Of a stretch of 64,000 bases of DNA, positions 16,181 through 31,362 are shown in pieces. The stretch spans positions 1,504,001-1,568,000 of the forward strand of contig CAWDFP010000006.1 of the NCBI GenBank assembly GCA_963801605.1, read 5' to 3'. The translations under genes were made by a program, and so were the position numbers. Under the pieces are notes generated by a model that was not told the DNA's origin, searched no databases, and saw only the letters and a program-made list of their open reading frames with translations. Each line of letters opens with the position of its first letter. Positions within the stretch are counted from its first letter, which is position 1. The DNA comes from an uncultured candidate division Zixibacteria bacterium. Lineage in GTDB: Bacteria; Zixibacteria; MSB-5A5; UBA10806.

Positions 16181-16810
16181 ATGGCTAGATATACCGGCCC
16201 AAGTTGCAGATTATGCCGTCGTGAAGGCATGAAGCTTTTCCTTAAGGGCAATCGCTGTCTTACGGATAGATGCGCTATTGAACGGCGCGGATATGCTCCG
16301 GGACAGCATGGGCAAAGCGGTCGCAGGAAAGGCTCCGAATACGGTTTTCAGCTTCGTGAGAAACAGAAAATTCGCCGTATATATGGAATTCTTGAACGGC
16401 AGTTCCACGGTTATTTCGAGAAAGCCTCGCGCTTAAAAGGAATCACCGGCGAGAACCTGCTGGTTCTGTTGGAATGCCGCATGGATAATGTTATTTATCG
16501 TCTGGGATTCGCTCCTTCAAGAAAAGCGGCCCGGCAGTTGGCGCTCCATCGTCACTTTACCGTCAATAATAAAATTGTCGATATCCCCTCGTATCAGATT
16601 AAACCGGGAGATGTCATCAGGGTGCGCGAGAATAGCCGCAATATCGATATGATCCATTTGGCCCTTAAAGATGCCGGCAAGGGATTTGAACTTCCCTGGC
16701 TGCGCCTCGACAAAGCCAAAATGGAAGGCGAGCTGCTCGAGCGGCCAAAGAGACTGGATATCCCAACCACTGTCCAAGAACAGATGGTTGTCGAACTATA
16801 TTCTAAGTAG
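16181..16810 (+). CDS. rpsD: 30S ribosomal protein S4
   Basis: [28 protein letters not shown]. Confidence 0.98.
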
Positions 16811-16835
16811 AGCAAACTACGGGAGGCGTGTTAGA

Positions 16836-17829
16836 ATGAAGTGGAAAAGTATGCAAATGCCCAAGGATGTGGTTCTCGATGAGAAAACCGCAACTCAGAG
16901 CTATGGCCGATTCACCATCGAGCCGCTCGAGAGAGGCTTTGGGCATACCCTCGGCACGGCGTTCCGACGAGTGCTGCTCTCCTCGATCCAGGGCGCGGCC
17001 GTTACCGCTATTAGAGTCACTGGGTATTTTGCATGAGTTCTCGACTATTCCCGGTGTGCTGGAGGATGTTACCGAGTTAGTCTTAAATGTTAAAAAACTC
17101 AAACTCAAACTTTTAGGCGATGAGCCGAAGACTATCGTTCTTTCGGCAAATTCAAAGGGCGCCTTTAAGGCTGGCGATATCGAGGCCGATCCCACTATCG
17201 AAATTGTCAATCCCGATTTTCATCTCGTCACCCTCAATGACGATATCAAATTTCGGATGGAGATGGATGTCGAATCCGGTCGCGGTTTTGTTACCGCCGA
17301 CCTCAATAGAAAGACCGGACAACCGGCTGGCACGATCTACCTCGATACCAGATTTTCCCCGGTTATCAAGGTTAATTATGCCGTTGAGGACACCCGCGTC
17401 GGACAGCGTACTGACTATGATAAATTGACAATTGAAATCTGGACCGACTCCACAATCACTCCCGAGGAGGCCCTGACCTTCGCTGCCAGACTTGTCAAAG
17501 ACCACCTCAATATATTTGCCAAGGTCGACCAGGAAATGGAAATGGTCGAAGAGGAAAAGGTTGACGAGGAAGTCATGAGGATTCGCAATCTGCTCAAGAT
17601 GCGGGTCGATGAGTTGGAGCTATCGGTGCGTTCGTCGAACTGCCTGCATGCGGCCAATATTATTACCCTTGAGGACCTGGTCCGCAAAACCGAGCAGGAA
17701 ATGTTGAAATACCGTAATTTTGGAAGAAAGTCGCTTAACGAGCTTAACAGCATCCTCTCCGAATTGGGCCTGTCCTTTGGCATGGATGTCGATAAGTACA
17801 AAGAACCGGAAGAAGCAAAGGCAATATAG
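16836..17829 (+). CDS. rpoA: RNA polymerase alpha subunit (frameshift near 17022)
   Basis: [22 protein letters not shown] joined to [27 protein letters not shown]. Confidence 0.96.
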
Positions 17830-18813: not shown

Positions 18814-20968
18814 ATGAGAAAGTTTCTTTTCGTTTCATTATTAGTCGCCATATTTGCATCCGTGGCTTTCGCGCAAACGCTTGAATATGCCGGATCTGCT
18901 CTGTGGAATGGCGCATGGGATGTCAAGGTCGTTGACAACCGCGCTTATTGCGCATTTTATAGCGGTTTGATGATTATCGATATATCGGATCCATCCAATC
19001 CTTCCATTATCAGCCGCCTGTTTTGCCGTGGTAATAACTATAAAATAGCTATTAATGGAGATTATATATTTTTAGCTTCAACGCAAAATGGAATTAATAT
19101 TATAAATGTGTTAGATCAATCAAATCCTGTATTAGTGGGTAATATTGTGCCCCGTGGTATGCGGGTAAATGATATCTATGTAAACGGCGATTATCTTTAT
19201 TCTGCTGAAGATACCGCGGGTTTCCAAATAATAGATATTTCCAATATGATGCAACCAGTACGAATAGGATCGTATCACTTAGTATTTTCTTCTCCATTTC
19301 CTGCGGTATATGTTGACGGTGATTATGCCTATTTTACATGTAATAACCGACCATTGTACATAATCAATATATCAAACAAAACAAATCCTACATTAGAAGG
19401 AACGTACTATAATCCAGAGCAGGCCCTCGGTTTTTATGATGTTGTGACAATTGGTGATTAAATATACTTAAGTGCCAATTCTGGAGGGGTCATGACTCTC
19501 GATGCGCAGGATAAGAGTAATCCCGTACTATTGAGTAACCTTGGTCTTTCACATGAATGTGTAAGCTTGGCAATCTCCGGCCAATATGCGTACATGGCTT
19601 CTCCCAACAATGCCCTTGAAATTATTAATATAGCTGATCCTCAAAACCTGGTATTAAGCGGGGAATTTACTTCATCCCAATTCAATTGGGGCCTTGATGT
19701 TAGCAGTAATTACGCTTACATGACTGACCGCTATGGCGGATTCAAGATAATAGATGTTTCTGATTCCCAATCTCCGGAATTATTAAGCGATTTTAATTAT
19801 AGTCGTTATGTATATCAGGTAGGCATCACAGGAAATATGGCCATTGTGGCCGATACAACGCATTTTTTGAAAATTCTAAATTTATCTTATCCCGACAGCC
19901 TTTTTCGGTTGCCCAATTATGGCATGGGACCTTGGATTAATGGAATAGAAATAGTAGGAAATCTGGCGCTATTTTCCAGCCAAAGTGGTTATGAATCAGG
20001 GTTATATATTTTTGATATCTCTAATATTGAACGACCAGTGTTATTAGGTAGATCTCTCGATACGTTTACTTATGCAGGGGATTTGGCCATAGATAGTACT
20101 TATGTTTATTTGCTTTCTGATGCCGGTTTTCATGTGATAAATATTAGTGATCCCTCTTCACCATGGCGCCAAGGGCATTTTTATATATCAAATTATAATC
20201 GTCCGAATGATATTGCAATTAAGGATAGCATAGCTTATGTCGCTGCAAACGATTCAGGCCTTTATTGCGTATCGATATCAGACCCGAGCCATCCGGCCTT
20301 ACTGGGTCATATTATTCCCGCTGGGTACACTTATGGTGTTGCTATTCGCGATAATTATGCCTTCCTCGGCTGCGGGATTGATACGCTCATTGTATTAGAT
20401 ATTTCTGATCCCACCAATCCCATCGTTGCTGTTACCTATGAGGTCCCTGATGTCTATATCGCTTTCCGGGACATAATATTATCGGGCGATTATGCCTTTA
20501 TAACCGACAGTCACCGCGGATTATCGGTGATCGATATTTCGAATCCTTTAAGCCCATCGTTTGTGACCTTTTTTGGGACTTATGGGGAAGTTAACGGCAT
20601 GGCAGTATCCGGGAACCTCATTTACCTTGCCAATCAATATTCCCTCCTAATCCTCCGCTTCAATCCCGAAACAGGTACGATTGAGGATATCACTAATCTC
20701 CCTCAAGCGCTTTCCCTTTCCCAAAACTATCCCAATCCCTTCAACGCCCAAACAACTATTCAATATGACCTGCCCGTCGCTTCAGATGTCACCCTCTCAA
20801 TTTATGATATCCAGGGCCGCATGGTTGGAACCCCTAGTAAATGAACACCAGAAAGCGGGTCATCATCAAACTACCTGGGATGCCTCAAAGTATTCTTCTG
20901 GCGTCTATTTCTATAGAGTCCAGGCCGGGAATTTCAGTCAAACCCAAAAGGCAATCCTTCTAAAATAA
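18814..20968 (+). pseudogene. Secreted LVIVD-repeat beta-propeller protein with QNYPNPFN-type (T9SS/FlgD-like) CTD; in-frame TAA at 19459 and frameshift near 20833
   Basis: Signal peptide; many 'GDYAY..GL.IIDISDP..P' repeats; ORFs at 18814 and 19492 share a frame; CTD completed in another frame (WDASKYSSGVYFYR..ILLK). Confidence 0.8.
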
Positions 20969-21073
20969 TAAGTTTTTATTATATCCATAATACGATATAG
21001 TATCTCGATAGCCAAAGTTAGGCCGGTTTATTTTCCCTTTACAGAATGCCCCCTATTTCATAGAATTACCCTC

Positions 21074-22240
21074 ATGCGTGCCTGTGTTCTTATCTTGGAT
21101 TCCTGCGGAGTAGGGGAGCTTCCCGATGCCGCCCAATATGGCGATTCCGGTGCCAATACCATCGGAAATATCGCTAAAGCTTTGAATGGTTTGCCAATTC
21201 CCAATCTCCAGAAAATGGGCTTTGCCAATATTATCGAGATAATTGGTGTACCTCCCGCGCAAAAACCGATCAGCTTTTATGGCAAGATGGCACAAGGCAG
21301 CGCCGGAAAAGATTCTACTGTCGGCCACTGGGAGCACTTTGGGATAATCACCCAAAAACCGTTTCCTACCTATCCCAATGGCTTTCCTCCGGCCATAATC
21401 GCCGAATTTGAAAAGCGCACCGGACGCAAAGCTATTGGAAACAAACCCGCCTCCGGTACCGAAATTATAAAAGAACTTGGTGAAGAGCATCTTAAAACCG
21501 GCGCCCTTATTGTGTATACATCAGGCGATTCGGTCTTCCAGATAGCCGCCCATCGGTCGATAGTGCCCGTCGATGAACTCTATCGCTATAGCCGTATCGC
21601 CCGGGAGATAATGACCGGAGATCACGGCGTCTCCCGCATCATTGCCCGGCCTTTTGATGGTGAGCCTGGCAAATTTTATCGGACTGATGAGCGCCACGAT
21701 TTCTCTCTCGTCCCGCCGACCGACAGCGGCCTTGATATCTTATCACGTGCTGGCCACAAGGTTATTTCCATCGGAAAAATCAATGACCTTTTTGCTGGAA
21801 AGGGAATCACGGAATCCCATCCCACCAAATCTAATGCTGACGGCATCGATAAACTGATTGATATACTGGGTCAATCCTTCGATGGCCTGATTTATATTAA
21901 TCTTGTTGATTTTGATATGCTCTGGGGGCATCGTAATGATGTTCGAGGTTTTGCTGACGGTTTAATTTATTTCGATAAGAAATTGCCGGAGATTTTAGCC
22001 AAACTGTCGAGGGGCGATCTCTTCATAATCTCCGCCGACCACGGTTGCGACCCCACTACGCCATCCACAGATCACTCCCGTGAATATGTGCCGATTCTGG
22101 CCAGTCTTTCAAATTTCGACTCTTATTCGGGGAAATCGTTGGGAATCAGAAAATCATTCGCCGATCTTGGCGCCACTGTACTTGACTTCTTCGGCCTTCG
22201 TCAGCCGACAGGAGAGAGCTTCTTGGGAGACCTAAAATGA
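21074..22240 (+). CDS. deoB: Phosphopentomutase
   Basis: LDSCGVGELPDA..GDSGANT, GKDST.GHWE, YTSGDSVFQIAAH, ADHGCDP..TDHSRE. Confidence 0.96.
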   Translation: MRACVLILDSCGVGELPDAAQYGDSGANTIGNIAKALNGLPIPNLQKMGFANIIEIIGVPPAQKPISFYGKMAQGSAGKDSTVGHWEHFGIITQKPFPTYPNGFPPAIIAEFEKRTGRKAIGNKPASGTEIIKELGEEHLKTGALIVYTSGDSVFQIAAHRSIVPVDELYRYSRIAREIMTGDHGVSRIIARPFDGEPGKFYRTDERHDFSLVPPTDSGLDILSRAGHKVISIGKINDLFAGKGITESHPTKSNADGIDKLIDILGQSFDGLIYINLVDFDMLWGHRNDVRGFADGLIYFDKKLPEILAKLSRGDLFIISADHGCDPTTPSTDHSREYVPILASLSNFDSYSGKSLGIRKSFADLGATVLDFFGLRQPTGESFLGDLK

Positions 22241-22623
22241 TCGATTGGGAAAAATTGATTTCGGCCGCTAAGGATGTTAGAAAAAATGCTTACGCCAAAT
22301 TCTCCGGTTTCGAGGTTGGCGCCGCCCTTCTTACTGAGGATGGCGAAATCGTCACAGGCTGCAATGTTGAAAATAGCTCCTTCGGGCTGACAATCTGCGC
22401 CGAACGTACCGCCGCCTTTAAAGCCGTCTCGGAGGGGCATAAGAAGTTTGTGGCAATCGCAGTATATTCCGAATCGCCGCAGCCCGCTCGGCCATGTGGC
22501 GCTTGCCGTCAGGTGCTGTTCGAGTTCAATCCCGATCTCGAAATCGCCTGCGCCAATACGCAGGGCATTGTCGATAAATTTACTCTCTCAGAGCTTTTAC
22601 CGGAGGGTTTCAGACTCAGATGA
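22237..22623 (+). CDS. cdd: Cytidine deaminase
   Basis: GCNVEN, CAERTA, PCGACRQ. Confidence 0.96.
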   Translation: MIDWEKLISAAKDVRKNAYAKFSGFEVGAALLTEDGEIVTGCNVENSSFGLTICAERTAAFKAVSEGHKKFVAIAVYSESPQPARPCGACRQVLFEFNPDLEIACANTQGIVDKFTLSELLPEGFRLR

Positions 22624-22883
22624 ATTTGGGGAAAGTTACCGGCTGTCTCTGGGCCTCGGCCAAACACGGCTCGCTTAAGGGTGCCAAACTTCTTATCGTA
22701 TCGCAGATCGGTTCCGATGGTAAATTTACAGGAGGATATGAAGTCGCTTACGATACTGTCGATGCTGGAATCGGCGATACGGTACTTACTGTCAAAGGCT
22801 CTTCGGCCAAGATGACTCCGCAAACAACAAATGCGACTATCGATTGCGCAATAACAGGGATTGTAGACCATGTCCAACAATGA
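22620..22883 (+). CDS. Bacterial microcompartment vertex (pentamer) protein, EutN/CcmL family
   Basis: M.LGKV.G.LW.S.K..L.G.KLLIV, VA.DTVDAG.GD.VL, GSSA, IDCAI.GIVD; 87 aa. Confidence 0.92.
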   Translation: MNLGKVTGCLWASAKHGSLKGAKLLIVSQIGSDGKFTGGYEVAYDTVDAGIGDTVLTVKGSSAKMTPQTTNATIDCAITGIVDHVQQ

Positions 22884-23721
22884 TGAATTGATTAAAAAGA
22901 TCGTCGAGCAGGTTATTTCAGATCAACAGAAAAAACCGGGCTCCGAGGAAAATGATCACGCCTCATGTCAGGGCTGCGGGCATTGCATAGCAAAACGGCA
23001 GGATGCTGTGAAACAGATTGCTGATGCTGGAGCCAGCCGGCTATCCGCCGGAATTGGTGTTGGCAAGGATATTGTCACGCCTACCCTTATCGATCATACT
23101 CTTCTCAAACCCAATGCTACCGCGCGCGAATTGGAGCAGCTTTGCGGCGAGGCTCTTGAATACGGCTTTTATTCGGTATGTATCAATCCCACCCATATCG
23201 CGCGTTGCCGGGATATTTTGGCCGGTTCACGCGTTAAGGTTTGCACCGTAATCGGATTTCCCTTAGGCGCGAATACATCGGCCACTAAGGCCTTTGAGGC
23301 GGCCAACGCCGAATCGCTGGGAGCCGAGGAAATCGATATGGTGATAAATGTCGGCGCTCTCAAAGACAATCAGTTGTCTTTTGTGAAAGACGATATTGCC
23401 GCGGTTGTCGAGGCCACATCCAAAACTGTAATCACCAAGGTCATATTGGAAAACGCCTACCTTACCGCCGAGGAGAAAATCAGGGGCTGTCTTATGGCCA
23501 AAGCCGCCGCCGCCGATTTTGTTAAGACTTCAACCGGGTTTGGGCCGTCGGGCGCTACCCTTGAGGATGTGGCTCTTATGCGCCGAGTGGTGGGCGAGGA
23601 GCTCGGTGTCAAGGCCGCTGGAGGAATCCGCGATACAGCTATGGCCTTAAAAATGATGGAGGCCGGAGCGACTCGTATCGGCGCCTCGGCGTCTATCAAA
23701 ATAGTGACTGGAACGACATGA
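22870..23721 (+). CDS. deoC: Deoxyribose-phosphate aldolase with ~65-aa N-terminal extension
   Basis: IDHTLLKP, CTVIGFPLG, EIDMVIN, FVKTSTGF, VKAAGGIR, GATRIGAS. Confidence 0.96.
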   Translation: MSNNDELIKKIVEQVISDQQKKPGSEENDHASCQGCGHCIAKRQDAVKQIADAGASRLSAGIGVGKDIVTPTLIDHTLLKPNATARELEQLCGEALEYGFYSVCINPTHIARCRDILAGSRVKVCTVIGFPLGANTSATKAFEAANAESLGAEEIDMVINVGALKDNQLSFVKDDIAAVVEATSKTVITKVILENAYLTAEEKIRGCLMAKAAAADFVKTSTGFGPSGATLEDVALMRRVVGEELGVKAAGGIRDTAMALKMMEAGATRIGASASIKIVTGTT

Positions 23722-25022
23722 GCCCCGTTGAAATAATAGCCAAGAAGCGGGATGGCAATAAGCTTTCGCGCGATGAAATCGCCCATTTTATTAATTCGTT
23801 CCTAAAAGGCGATATTAAAGATTATCAAATGTCTGCTTTCCTCATGGCGGTCTATCTCAAAGGGATGGATTTCGAGGAAACCGGCTGGCTAACCGAAATT
23901 ATGCTCCATTCGGGTGAGGCAGTTTCCTTCGGCGAGCCGCGCCGACTTTATGTTGATAAGCACTCCACGGGCGGCGTTGGTGATAAAGTTTCATTGATCC
24001 TTGCGCCCTGGATCGCAGCTTGCGGAGCGAAGGTCCCGATGCTTTCCGGCCGAGGTTTAGGTCATACCGGCGGGACTCTCGATAAATTGGAAACGATTCC
24101 CGGCTATAGGACTAATCTCTCGCTTGATGAGTTCAAAAATGGTGTCGAGCGCGTGGGATGCGTAATCTCCGGACAGACGCCTGAAATCGCCCCCGCCGAT
24201 AAGGCTCTTTACGCTCTTCGTGATGTCACCGCTACCGTAGAATCAATTCCCTTAATTTGCGGCTCGATTCTTTCTAAAAAATTCGCCGCCGGGCCAAATG
24301 GGCTGGTTTTCGATGTTAAATGCGGGAATGGGGCCTTTATGAAAACGGTCGAAACCGCCTCCAGTCTGGCCTCGAATCTTATCGGAGTCTGCAAGGCTAT
24401 GGGTCGGAATGTCTGTGCGCTGCTCACCGATATGAATCAGCCTTTGGGGTACGCTTCTGGAAATATTCTCGAGGTCCAGGAATCTGTCGATGCACTCAAC
24501 GGCAGCTTTGCTCCCGATTTATATCGGGTTACTTTCGAGCTTGGAATTGAGATGCTGTTAATTGCGGGCCTCAAACCGAATAGGGAATCCGCTGGAATCC
24601 TTCTTGAGCAAAAGCTTAAAGATGGCTCTGCCTGGCGTAAGTTTCAGGAGATGGTTTCCTACCAGCAGGGTAGTTTGACGATTTTCGAAAACGATAGCCG
24701 GATGCCCAAAGCTCCCGTAATCAGGGAGTTCAAATCTCCTCTCAGCGGATTTGTTCAGGGATTTGAAACCGAGGGAATCGGACGGCTGATTGTCGATATG
24801 GGCGGCGGGCGAAAAACCAAAGACGATATAATCGATCCCCTGATTGGATTTATCTTCCGCAAAAAAATCGGAGAGCCGATCAACGCGGGTGATACTCTTG
24901 TCGAAATCCATGCCCGCGATAATGCCCAGGCGGAACTGGCAGCTTCACGACTTAATGAATTAATCCATTTAGGACCAGAAAAGCCCGAGGCGCCTGTACT
25001 TATAAAAAAACGTCTTATTTAA
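23718..25022 (+). CDS. pdp: Pyrimidine-nucleoside/thymidine phosphorylase
   Basis: DKHSTGGVGDK, SGRGLGHTGGTLDKLE, YALRDVTATV, DVK.G.GAFMK. Confidence 0.95.
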   Translation: MSPVEIIAKKRDGNKLSRDEIAHFINSFLKGDIKDYQMSAFLMAVYLKGMDFEETGWLTEIMLHSGEAVSFGEPRRLYVDKHSTGGVGDKVSLILAPWIAACGAKVPMLSGRGLGHTGGTLDKLETIPGYRTNLSLDEFKNGVERVGCVISGQTPEIAPADKALYALRDVTATVESIPLICGSILSKKFAAGPNGLVFDVKCGNGAFMKTVETASSLASNLIGVCKAMGRNVCALLTDMNQPLGYASGNILEVQESVDALNGSFAPDLYRVTFELGIEMLLIAGLKPNRESAGILLEQKLKDGSAWRKFQEMVSYQQGSLTIFENDSRMPKAPVIREFKSPLSGFVQGFETEGIGRLIVDMGGGRKTKDDIIDPLIGFIFRKKIGEPINAGDTLVEIHARDNAQAELAASRLNELIHLGPEKPEAPVLIKKRLI

Positions 25023-25054: not shown

Positions 25055-25568
25055 ATGAAAATCAGGCTTGCTAAAGTTGATGATGCCCCCGCCATTTCCC
25101 GGGTGCATATCGATTCCTGGCGAACGTCATATAGAGGCATAGTCCCGGACCAGGTGCTCGATAATCTCGATTATGTGCGCAATAATATCCGGTGGCGCGA
25201 GATGCTTTCCAATCTCGGCGAAATGAAGTGCTTTTTTGTTGCTGAGGATGATGATGGCCGGATCGTTGGTTTTGCCATCGGCGGGCCTAATCGGGACGAG
25301 AACACCGGCTTCAACGGCGAACTTTACGCGATCTACCTTATCAAAGAATGCCAGGGACAAGGGGATAGGCAAAATGCTCGTCTCAAAAGTTGCAGCCTGG
25401 TTGGCCAATCGACGATATGATTCCATGCTGGTTTGGGTGCTCGAAAAAAATCCTGCCAAATATTTCTACGAGTCTCTCGGCGCCAGGCCGGTTGGACGGA
25501 AAACTATCGTGATTGGTGATGCTTCACTTGATGAGCTTAGCTACGGCTGGCCTGATATTAAGACATGA
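25055..25568 (+). CDS. GNAT acetyltransferase (frameshift near 25360)
   Basis: IRLAKVDDA, ELYAIYL..QG.GIG, WVLEKNPAKYFYESLG. Confidence 0.85.
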
Positions 25569-29272: not shown

Positions 29273-30356
29273 ATGGAAACTCTAATTGATATAAACGACC
29301 TCAAATCGCGCCTCGAAAAGCTTCGGGGGTATCTTTGAGATTGATCGCTTAAGAGAAACTGCGGTTAAGCTCGAAAAGGAAACCCAGGACCCCAACTTCT
29401 GGGGTGATAATCAAAAAGCTCAATCCACGGTTAAAAAATTAAACGGACTCAAGAAAACTGTCGCCGATTGGGAATCGCTTAAAAAAGAGATTGATGACAC
29501 CGGCGAGCTAATTACATTGGCCGAAAGCGATCCGGGGATGCAACAGGAGCTATCCGCCCAGGCTGGCGTGCTGACCCAAAAACTCGATGATTTTGAATTT
29601 CGCAGTTTTCTTTCCAACGAGGAGGATTCGCAGGACGCTATCCTTGCCATCCATCCCGGCGCCGGCGGTACCGAGTCGCAGGATTGGGCTTCGATGCTGC
29701 TTCGTATGTATCTCCGTTGGGCTGAACGCCATGGTTTCCAAACCGATACGATGGATTATCAGAATGGTGACGAAGCCGGTATCAAGTCTGCCACGCTTGA
29801 AATTAAAGGCCCTTACGCTTATGGCTATCTTAAATCGGAATCGGGAGTGCATCGTCTGGTTCGCATCTCTCCCTTTGACGCCAATAAAAGACGACACACC
29901 TCGTTTGCTTCCGTCTTCATATACCCTGAAACCGGTGAAGATATCAATGTCGAAGTGAAACCCGATGATATCAAAGTCGACACTTTCCGGGCTTCTGGAG
30001 CCGGCGGCCAGCATGTCAATAAGACATCATCGGCGGTGAGAATGACACATATCCCGACAGGGATCGTTGTCCAGTGTCAATCCGAGCGTTCTCAGTTTAA
30101 GAATCGCGAATCGGCTCTCAAGGTCCTTAAGGCGCGCCTTTATCAAAAAGCCCTCGAGGAGGAACGTGCTAAGCTGGCCGTGGTTGAGGCCACCAAGAAA
30201 AAAATCGAATGGGGTTCGCAGATAAGATCCTATGTTTTCCAGCCTTATATGCTGGTCAAGGATCATCGTACTGATTTTGAATCTTCTAATGTCAACGCCG
30301 TCATGGACGGCGAAATTGATGATTTTATACATGCCTTTTTGTCGCATAAAGAGTAA
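29273..30356 (+). CDS. prfB: Peptide chain release factor 2 (programmed +1 frameshift)
   Basis: [25 protein letters not shown], continued in +1 frame EIDRLRE..DPNFW; SPF and GGQ motifs. Confidence 0.97.
29324..29339 (+). promoter_or_regulatory. RF2 autoregulatory frameshift site
   Basis: Internal SD-like GGGGG then TAT CTT TGA G; CTT is codon 21. Confidence 0.92.
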
Positions 30357-30366
30357 AGGAAACGTG

Positions 30367-31362
30367 ATGAATATCGTGACAAGCATTCAGGACAAAGCGC
30401 GTAAGCTGAAAGGACGGATCGTCCTTCCGGAAGGATCAGAAGAGAGAACCGTGCAGGCGGCTAAGAAACTTTTATCCGAGGGTATTTGCGCTCCCGTACT
30501 TTTGGGTGATATCGATCAGATCAAAAAACTCTGCCAGAATTATACTCTCAACCCCGATAAGGTCGAGATCGTCGATCCCGCCAAAGATTCCATGTTTGAT
30601 TTCTATGTTGATGACTACTACCGTCTCCGTAAAGAAAAAGGGATGACCCTCGACGAAGCCAGGCGTGTCCTGCAAAACACCCTGTTTTTCGGCGCTATGA
30701 TGGTCCGGCACGCTCGCGTTGATGGTTCGGTCGCCGGAGCCTTGAGCACCACCGGCGATGTTCTTCGCGCCGCTATCCAATGCATCGGGCTGGCTAAGGG
30801 TATCGATGTTGTCTCCTCTAGTTTCCTGATGGTTCTTCCGGAATTCCAGGGCGAACGCGGTAAGCTCTTCGTCTTTGCAGACTGCGCCGTGCTTCCCGAT
30901 CCCACTGCGGAACAACTGGCCTCGATTGCCATCTCATCTGCCGAAACCATGCGCAAACTTGGCGGCCAGGAACCACGAGTGGCTATGCTCTCCTTCTCAA
31001 CCAAAGGCTCTGCTAAACATGATAGAATCGATAAAGTCCTCAAAGCTCTTTCGATTGTTAAACAAAAAGCCCCCGATCTGGCCGTCGATGGTGAACTTCA
31101 GCTTGACGCTGCTGTCGTGCCCTCGATTGCCAAGCGTAAGGCTCCCGATTCCAAAGTTGCCGGAAACGCCAACGTGCTGATCTTCCCCGATCTCGATTCC
31201 GGTAATATCGGTTATAAGCTTACCCAGCGTTTCGGTGGCGCCGACGCTATTGGTCCTGTGATTCAAGGTTTGGCCAAACCTGCCAACGATCTCTCCCGCG
31301 GATGTTCTGTTGACGATATTGTCAACGTAGCCGCCATCGCATCGGTGCTTTCAAAGGGATAA
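30367..31362 (+). CDS. pta: Phosphate acetyltransferase
   Basis: [46 protein letters not shown]. Confidence 0.94.

Follow-up and report, generated by a model that had tools for sequence, protein, structure and literature searches.

Why should a shell gene of a bacterial microcompartment (BMC) be embedded in an operon for the breakdown of pyrimidine deoxynucleosides? The question is posed by a 64,000-nt stretch of DNA from an uncultured Zixibacteria bacterium (GenBank assembly GCA_963801605.1, contig CAWDFP010000006.1, positions 1,504,001 to 1,568,000; hereafter the window), in which deoB, cdd, deoC and pdp are joined by a gene for a BMC vertex protein (BMC-P) between positions 21074 and 25022. 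We regard it as probable that this operon, with its inserted vertex gene and an aldolase that likely bears a packaging tag, supplies the substrate and the signature enzyme of a scattered metabolosome resembling the sugar-phosphate-utilisation (SPU) type.

A vertex gene within a deo operon

All five genes lie on the forward strand and score above the cut-offs of their families, which for the four enzymes are curated NCBIfam values. They are deoB (21074..22240), for a phosphopentomutase of 388 aa (TIGR01696, 458 bits against a cut-off of 341); cdd (22237..22623), for a tetrameric-type cytidine deaminase of 128 aa in which the zinc motifs are present (TIGR01354, 149 against 114); the vertex gene (22620..22883); deoC (22870..23721), for a deoxyribose-phosphate aldolase (DERA) of 283 aa (TIGR00126, 261 against 117); and pdp (23718..25022), for a pyrimidine-nucleoside phosphorylase of 434 aa (TIGR02644, 531 against 409). 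The initial annotation, made from the sequence without database searches, had taken the 87-aa open reading frame (ORF) between cdd and deoC for a EutN/CcmL-type vertex protein, and PF03319 matches it with 92.7 bits against a cut-off of 25. Its description of the genes as mutually overlapping was borne out: all five ORFs lie as proposed, and a script found ATGA overlaps at 22237, 22620 and 23718 and a 14-nt overlap at 22870. The active-site motifs of Cdd, DeoB and Pdp are present. Among named relatives of the DeoC locus, a Zixibacteria metagenome-assembled genome comes closest, with 82% identity and an identical gene order.

The vertex protein belongs to a deo-linked subfamily. In a quick tree of 94 columns, the vertex proteins encoded in the operons of six genomes cluster together, separately from the triplet vertices described below (SH-like approximate likelihood-ratio test, SH-aLRT, 85), and a subfamily profile detects 14 of the 285 genomes of the phylum at E 1e-22: three in genus g1, 10 of the 15 in family f10 and one in f6. 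A survey of gene order in relatives, as had been suggested initially, placed the subfamily vertex gene directly 5′ of deoC in all 14 genomes, within the order deoB-cdd-BMC-P-deoC in 13 of them, and because both arrangements recur in this way they reflect more than chance. DeoC bears an N-terminal extension in 14/14 of these genomes. All of them also carry the hexamer-type shell gene BMC-H, which was detected at E 1e-24 in 13 and, with a one-base frame break, in the genome of the window (G000). In family f10, the vertex subfamily and BMC-H occur together, in an identical set of 10 of the 15 genomes, and among 41 relatives BMC-H and BMC-P were found in the same 20.

In shell-less members of the family the operon persists but has no vertex gene, being deoB-cdd-deoC-pdp in G003 and G008 and cdd-deoC-pdp in G006 and G009. 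With G003 and G008 the window operon shares genes, order and location, rplQ preceding the operon and a PBP1A-like gene and tyrS following it; it differs from theirs in its vertex gene and in the SPU-type tag on its aldolase. It is the ordinary deo operon of this lineage. In the simplest history, the native operon and the shell would have been linked early and the link lost repeatedly since, though in genus g1 it may have been gained.

The best sigma-70-like site of the region (21038..21066, forward strand) matches 10 of 12 consensus positions with a 17-nt spacer and ends 7 nt 5′ of the deoB start; it would yield a leaderless or near-leaderless message. It is a consensus match alone, in a region with 13 sigma-70-like sites against 6.3 in shuffles, and a terminator scan of the same region found sites no commoner than in shuffles. 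We infer that the five genes are co-transcribed, and a role in "DNA scavenging", as first proposed for them, could be envisaged.

The aldolase and its tag

The operon copy is the sole DeoC found by a genome search. Its catalytic residues Asp156, Lys219 and Lys248 are invariant in the alignment, as in the DERAs (PF01791) of SPU loci. The barrel is preceded by 73 residues that comprise a predicted amphipathic helix (residues 3-20; 22876..22929, forward strand), which is likely an encapsulation peptide (EP), and the remainder of an SPU-type extension recognised by alignment and profile (22966..23052, forward strand), namely a CxxCxxC motif (Cys33, Cys36 and Cys39) followed by a helix-GAxR segment. 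On a profile of such extensions (the tag) trained on nine non-Zixibacteria DERAs from contiguous shell loci, it scores 36 bits, in line with the BMC-specific N-terminal extension of SPU aldolases. For a Chloroflexi enzyme, SPU DERA activity and an extension of ~70 residues have been shown (Dwyer et al., 2024; PMC11585597). In an AlphaFold model of DeoC, the barrel is confident, helix 3-20 has a predicted local-distance difference test score (pLDDT) of ~80, and residues 21-70 mostly have 39-68; an ESM Atlas search with residues 1-72 returned no usable match.

The GAxR segment (residues 46-61; 23005..23052) resembles DERA's own last helix-strand unit, a likeness that is not mentioned in the accessible portions of PMC11585597. 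A profile of this unit, built from 52 untagged DERAs, scores at least 5 bits on 41 of 61 extensions, against a mean of 0.13 after shuffling, the segment having been picked after the likeness was noticed. At its other end (23700..23721), DeoC is without the C-terminal tyrosine common to most aligned DERAs, as are the shell-less relatives L013 and L016; in E. coli, this tyrosine aids catalysis.

Unlike the DERAs of Zixibacteria SPU3-like loci, which are RpiB-DERA fusions, the DeoC core clusters with the DeoC of shell-less family members (SH-aLRT 95-96). A clade with the fusions was rejected by the approximately unbiased (AU) test (p = 0.001), and with it the horizontal acquisition of deoC from a contiguous SPU3-like locus; these are quick trees that leave out the short G002 fragment, and the AU group was named after the first tree.

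Among Zixibacteria, 35 DERAs from 41 genomes were scored, six genomes being without a usable locus. The tag (at least 9 bits) is present in 13 of the 19 DERAs from shell-positive genomes versus 0 of the 16 from shell-negative genomes; SPU3-type RpiB-DERA fusions account for 10 of the 13. Of the six shell-positive genomes whose DERA falls short, five show another BMC-type feature. In G031, G040 and G036 (families f10 and f6), DeoC carries another N-terminal domain, of ~45 aa (L152:8178-9107, L153:8359-9225 and L154:828-1670), seen otherwise only on proteins of shell or SPU-type loci: among 6523 ORFs of the fetched loci, its profile matched only these DERAs, two RpiB-like proteins beside deoC and four ORFs of contiguous shell loci, and one of the domains gives a weak Pfam match to PF15953 (E 0.007). 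In G028 and G037, a short DeoC is preceded by an RpiB-like protein with an EP-like start, a partner type that has been shown to bind SPU DERA (PMC11585597). The DeoC N-termini of the shell-less genomes G003 (L158:7472-8395) and G008 (L159:7641-8459) are long and degenerate, have no match to the tag profile and are possibly relics.

A scattered shell and its competing explanations

The initial annotation saw neither BMC-H nor an aldehyde dehydrogenase in the window, and no match for either exists within its 64,000 nt. A pta gene at 30232-31362 was tried as an organelle enzyme and rejected; it is a PF01515 member whose position after prfB is plain synteny. The option of a satellite locus is borne out by the remainder of the genome (3.06 Mb, 87% complete), in which BMC-H, an aldehyde dehydrogenase and further PF03319 copies, all proposed as targets of a genome-wide check, were found on the same contig (C6). 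The genome's only BMC-H match, on which the organelle model had been made to depend, lies ~170 kb past the window (C6:1736544-1736744) and has its one-base frame break near the start. It is followed by a dehydrogenase of 478 aa with an amphipathic N-terminal helix and a score of 584 bits (cut-off 403) for PRK15398, a subfamily that we take to be the EutE/PduP-type aldehyde dehydrogenases; the genome thus has an EP-bearing aldehyde dehydrogenase, as SPU systems do, though remote from the operon. The BMC-P triplet, another SPU feature, lies at C6:209427-210252, and each of its three vertex genes groups with a different SPU vertex branch. The operon vertex is a fourth paralogue, 35-40% identical to these three.

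Other parts of the same check gave less. PduL was not found in the 87%-complete genome, nor were EutB or glycyl-radical enzymes. RpiB is encoded at two loci, both without extension or shell context, one of them preceding glyA; they were rejected as SPU partners, and no EP-bearing RpiB-like protein of the SPU kind was found in G000. When an EP profile made from 16 dehydrogenases was run over the six-frame translated genome, the BMC dehydrogenase came first (11 bits, E 0.8) and DeoC fell outside the top 15, but the profile lacks the strength to detect or exclude further cargo. Another aldehyde dehydrogenase, which is divergent (C6:14596-16059; PF00171, E 2.4e-28; AdhE-like by eye), has no shell genes nearby and is possibly a cytosolic aldehyde sink.

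In the sister genomes G001 and G002, BMC-H is intact and trimer-type shell genes (BMC-T) are present, the latter not being found in G000. A fourth locus of G002, adjoining prmC, encodes BMC-Hp, a PduS-like protein, a PduT-like BMC-T and an ACT-like protein; in G001, the PduS-like to ACT-like portion of this trimer locus is on a 3-kb contig. In several relatives the trimer locus ends with a protein whose N-terminal helix is EP-like and which carries an ACT or ACT-like domain (L170:9407-9937, L174:5431-5958, L164:557-1000 and L165:7738-8190); in G031 and G030 it is followed by DUF711, and it resembles the ACT protein described for FRAG4.

Cdd converts (deoxy)cytidine to (deoxy)uridine, Pdp forms deoxyribose-1-phosphate from thymidine or deoxyuridine, and DeoB converts this to deoxyribose-5-phosphate. 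In the organelle that we propose, these three enzymes would likely turn deoxycytidine, deoxyuridine and thymidine into deoxyribose-5-phosphate in the cytosol, and the tagged DeoC would likely split it inside the shell. The tagged dehydrogenase would likely convert acetaldehyde to acetyl-CoA inside the same fragmented, SPU-like shell, with NAD+ recycled by a PduS-like enzyme and a PduT-like trimer such as those found in the two sister genomes. Co-expression of the fourth vertex with DeoC could tie the capping of the shell to the supply of nucleosides. A match to a concentrative nucleoside transporter, split into three pieces that differ in frame (C6:337424-337829), is likely the uptake route if intact.

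Several observations weigh against this proposal. The genomes compared are related, so that the counts overstate independence. BMC-T, PduS and an SPU-type RpiB were not found in the G000 assembly, and the only BMC-H of that assembly is the one with the frame break. A class II aldolase with a C-terminal tail (L262:1474-2211; near position 1120700 of C6) is a candidate alternative cargo. In the largest Zixibacteria family, f9, BMC-H was detected in 37 of 108 genomes and this vertex subfamily in none; among the 27 of these 37 genomes that were tested, four gave no DeoC match and 23 have an untagged DeoC, in each case with neither a shell gene nor an RpiB gene within 1.5 kb. A tagged DERA therefore does not always accompany the scattered Zixibacteria shell, and the idea that all Zixibacteria shells are DERA compartments was rejected. 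The f9 genome G030 (L174, L181 and L157) has BMC-H with a dehydrogenase, BMC-Hp with one vertex and a plain DeoC, with one BMC-P found. Outside the phylum, one Anaerolineales DERA with an EP-like helix (L056/G090) comes from a genome in which no BMC-P was found.

The broken BMC-H, together with the BMC-T, BMC-Hp, PduS and ACT-like genes not found in G000, could mean that the organelle is decaying in this strain, its trimer locus lost and its vertex gene and tag recent leftovers; the degenerate DeoC N-termini of G003 and G008 suggest that such losses do occur in the family. Yet six of the 56 G000 genes tested against relatives are frame-changed, rpoA and prfA among them, and BMC-H beyond the break differs from that of G001 by 34 synonymous and 3 non-synonymous codons (the operon vertex gene differs from its G001 orthologue by 38 and 15). 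The break is probably an assembly error. Because prmC, the direct neighbour of the trimer locus in G002, is also missing, and its remaining neighbours extend up to the end of contig C1, the missing locus is likely an assembly gap. With both shell genes intact in the two sister genomes as well, we consider decay quite improbable. Frame-split genes occur in the window at 16671-17829, 18814-20968 and 25055-25568, and also include prfA on C1 and purD at L006; the assembly has many indel errors.

The shell could also serve some other aldehyde-producing enzyme, DeoC being a secondary or former cargo and the vertex gene kept in the operon only for its convenient promoter. The f9 shells with untagged or undetected DeoC, the tailed class II aldolase and the EP-like ACT-domain protein of the relatives' trimer locus would suit such an arrangement, which nevertheless seems unlikely to us in view of the three different BMC-type features that converge on the deoC locus in four families, the absence of the tag from all 16 shell-less relatives scored, and the fact that no EutB or glycyl-radical enzyme was found in G000. 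The initial annotation had envisaged a nucleoside-scavenging organelle with the whole upstream pathway co-transcribed with the aldolase and one pentamer, and this is supported in part. DeoC is the only one of the four operon enzymes that appears to bear a targeting extension; DeoB, Cdd and Pdp are without one and equal in length to their orthologues in shell-less relatives, and therefore are probably not cargo. Packing of all four in or on the shell, for example by riding on DeoC, would be consistent with the tight translational coupling of the five genes and with the complexes that SPU DERA forms with a partner protein (PMC11585597); given the absent extensions, and a pdp that does not follow deoC in G031, G040 and G036, it is very unlikely. 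The remaining option left by the initial annotation, a pentamer with a shell-independent role alongside the deo enzymes, could draw on the separate branch of the vertex subfamily and on its never being found away from deoC in the phylum search. We give it almost no credence, as BMC-H is present in 14/14 genomes that have the vertex, and none of the shell-less genomes has the vertex.

Known systems and the tag in other phyla

The SPU type is defined by DERA and an aldehyde dehydrogenase, with deoB mentioned only as an upstream step (PMC11585597), and is divided into the subtypes SPU1-7 (Sutter et al., 2021, PMC8217296; Dwyer et al., 2024, PMC11585597); most subtypes, though not SPU5, include an EP-bearing RpiB-like protein. 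The organelle proposed here resembles SPU in its DERA with three catalytic residues and a ~70-aa extension, its EP-bearing, acylating-type aldehyde dehydrogenase, its BMC-P triplet and, in the sister genomes, its PduS/PduT-like pair. It differs in having no contiguous main locus, the genes being spread over three separate loci in G000 and four in the sister genomes, in that SPU-type RpiB and PduL were not found in G000, and in the placement of DERA in a housekeeping deo operon with a fourth vertex.

Its layout, with shell genes scattered over several locations plus a BMC-P triplet, is that of the FRAG loci, which have been called enigmatic (PMC8217296). In FRAG3, known from Calditrichaeota, KSB1 and LCP-89, DeoC beside BMC-P was flagged in 2021 as a clue to function (PMC8217296, Supplementary Data 2), and the shell set comprises one triplet and two BMC-H by the authors' colour-clade hidden Markov models (PMC8217296). 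The scattered loci and a DeoC adjoining BMC-P are shared with the present system, whereas the phylum, the vertex extra to the triplet (four or five vertices per genome), the full deoB-cdd-(pdp) flanks and the aldehyde dehydrogenase beside BMC-H are not. Because the vertex is extra by count, we do not file the system as FRAG3; in the one FRAG3-like locus compared (L094, P-deoC-pdp, with three vertices in the genome), the vertex falls outside the present subfamily. The proposed organelle works like an SPU metabolosome and is laid out like FRAG, and it is neither a member of SPU1-7 nor clearly FRAG3. DeoC also occurs in FRAG5 and FRAG8, and a remote, EP-bearing DeoC in HO genomes, for which nucleic-acid catabolism was proposed (PMC8217296). 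These share with the present system a tagged DeoC distant from the main shell locus, but the fetched Myxococcota and Eisenbacteria loci have no shell gene within the deo operon.

A Zixibacteria shell set consisting of A2W25_08510 and six other proteins has been recorded as "fragmented (sat) (omitted)" (PMC8217296, Supplementary Data 1). A2W25_08510 is an 87-aa vertex protein 72% identical to that of the window, and the set comprises four BMC-P and three PF00936 proteins of 95, 173 and 183 aa; it was left untyped and, in the accessible portions of PMC8217296, is given no function. Supplementary Data 2 of that paper has no match for phosphorylase, mutase, deaminase, pfam01676 or pfam00591, and upstream enzymes have been found genome-wide in Asgard archaea with SPU-type operons (PMC12747264). 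Full-text literature, mostly without subscription papers, yielded no deo operon described as containing a shell gene, though the locus diagrams of PMC8217296 may show one. Already known are DeoC beside BMC-P in FRAG3, this shell set as "fragmented, omitted", and the chemistry; a shell gene inside a complete deo pathway was not found in print.

The known chemistry and the earlier record of DeoC beside a vertex gene limit the surprise. SPU is nonetheless among the most widespread microcompartment types, and the nucleoside origin of its substrate has so far been proposed from enzyme lists only; the translational coupling of a shell gene with deoB, cdd, deoC and pdp offers direct genetic linkage for this idea. 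An untyped Zixibacteria organelle gains a specific, testable function, and the question of why several BMC-P paralogues are retained in one cell finds a natural case in this extra vertex tied to an operon.

The tag is also a sequence marker that predicts shell genes in other phyla, and is usable for assigning other fragmented loci. From 79 non-Zixibacteria loci, 50 were tested, leaving out nine training loci, five others with extensions (four with shell genes in the locus) and 15 untagged loci; BMC-P was found in 39/39 genomes with a tagged DeoC versus 1/11 with an untagged one. Eight of these tagged deoC genes have deoB, cdd or pdp as a direct neighbour; they come from Myxococcota, Eisenbacteria and one record titled Deferribacteres. 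In the class around the Melioribacteraceae genome G044 (121 genomes), which from the record lineage we take to be Ignavibacteria, the tag, scored as a DeoC alignment from query residue 26 or earlier, is present in 42 of 44 BMC-P-positive versus 0 of 77 BMC-P-negative genomes, the query coming from a shell-positive lineage and so favouring long alignments to its relatives.

The shells of this class are presumably FRAG1, which was published as "shell protein only" with no EP-profile hits (PMC8217296). With slightly less than even confidence, we suggest that many FRAG organelles without an assigned function are deoxyribose-phosphate compartments whose aldolase, encoded in or near housekeeping deo genes, carries the tag of EP, cysteines and GAxR; Zixibacteria would reveal this through their dedicated fourth vertex, and the G044 class would be included. 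A PRK15398-type dehydrogenase occurs at E 1e-80 in just 3 of the 121 genomes of that class, a scarcity that the SPU model does not explain. If the suggestion is true, the compartment of the G044 class would hold the aldolase with a different or missing aldehyde sink.

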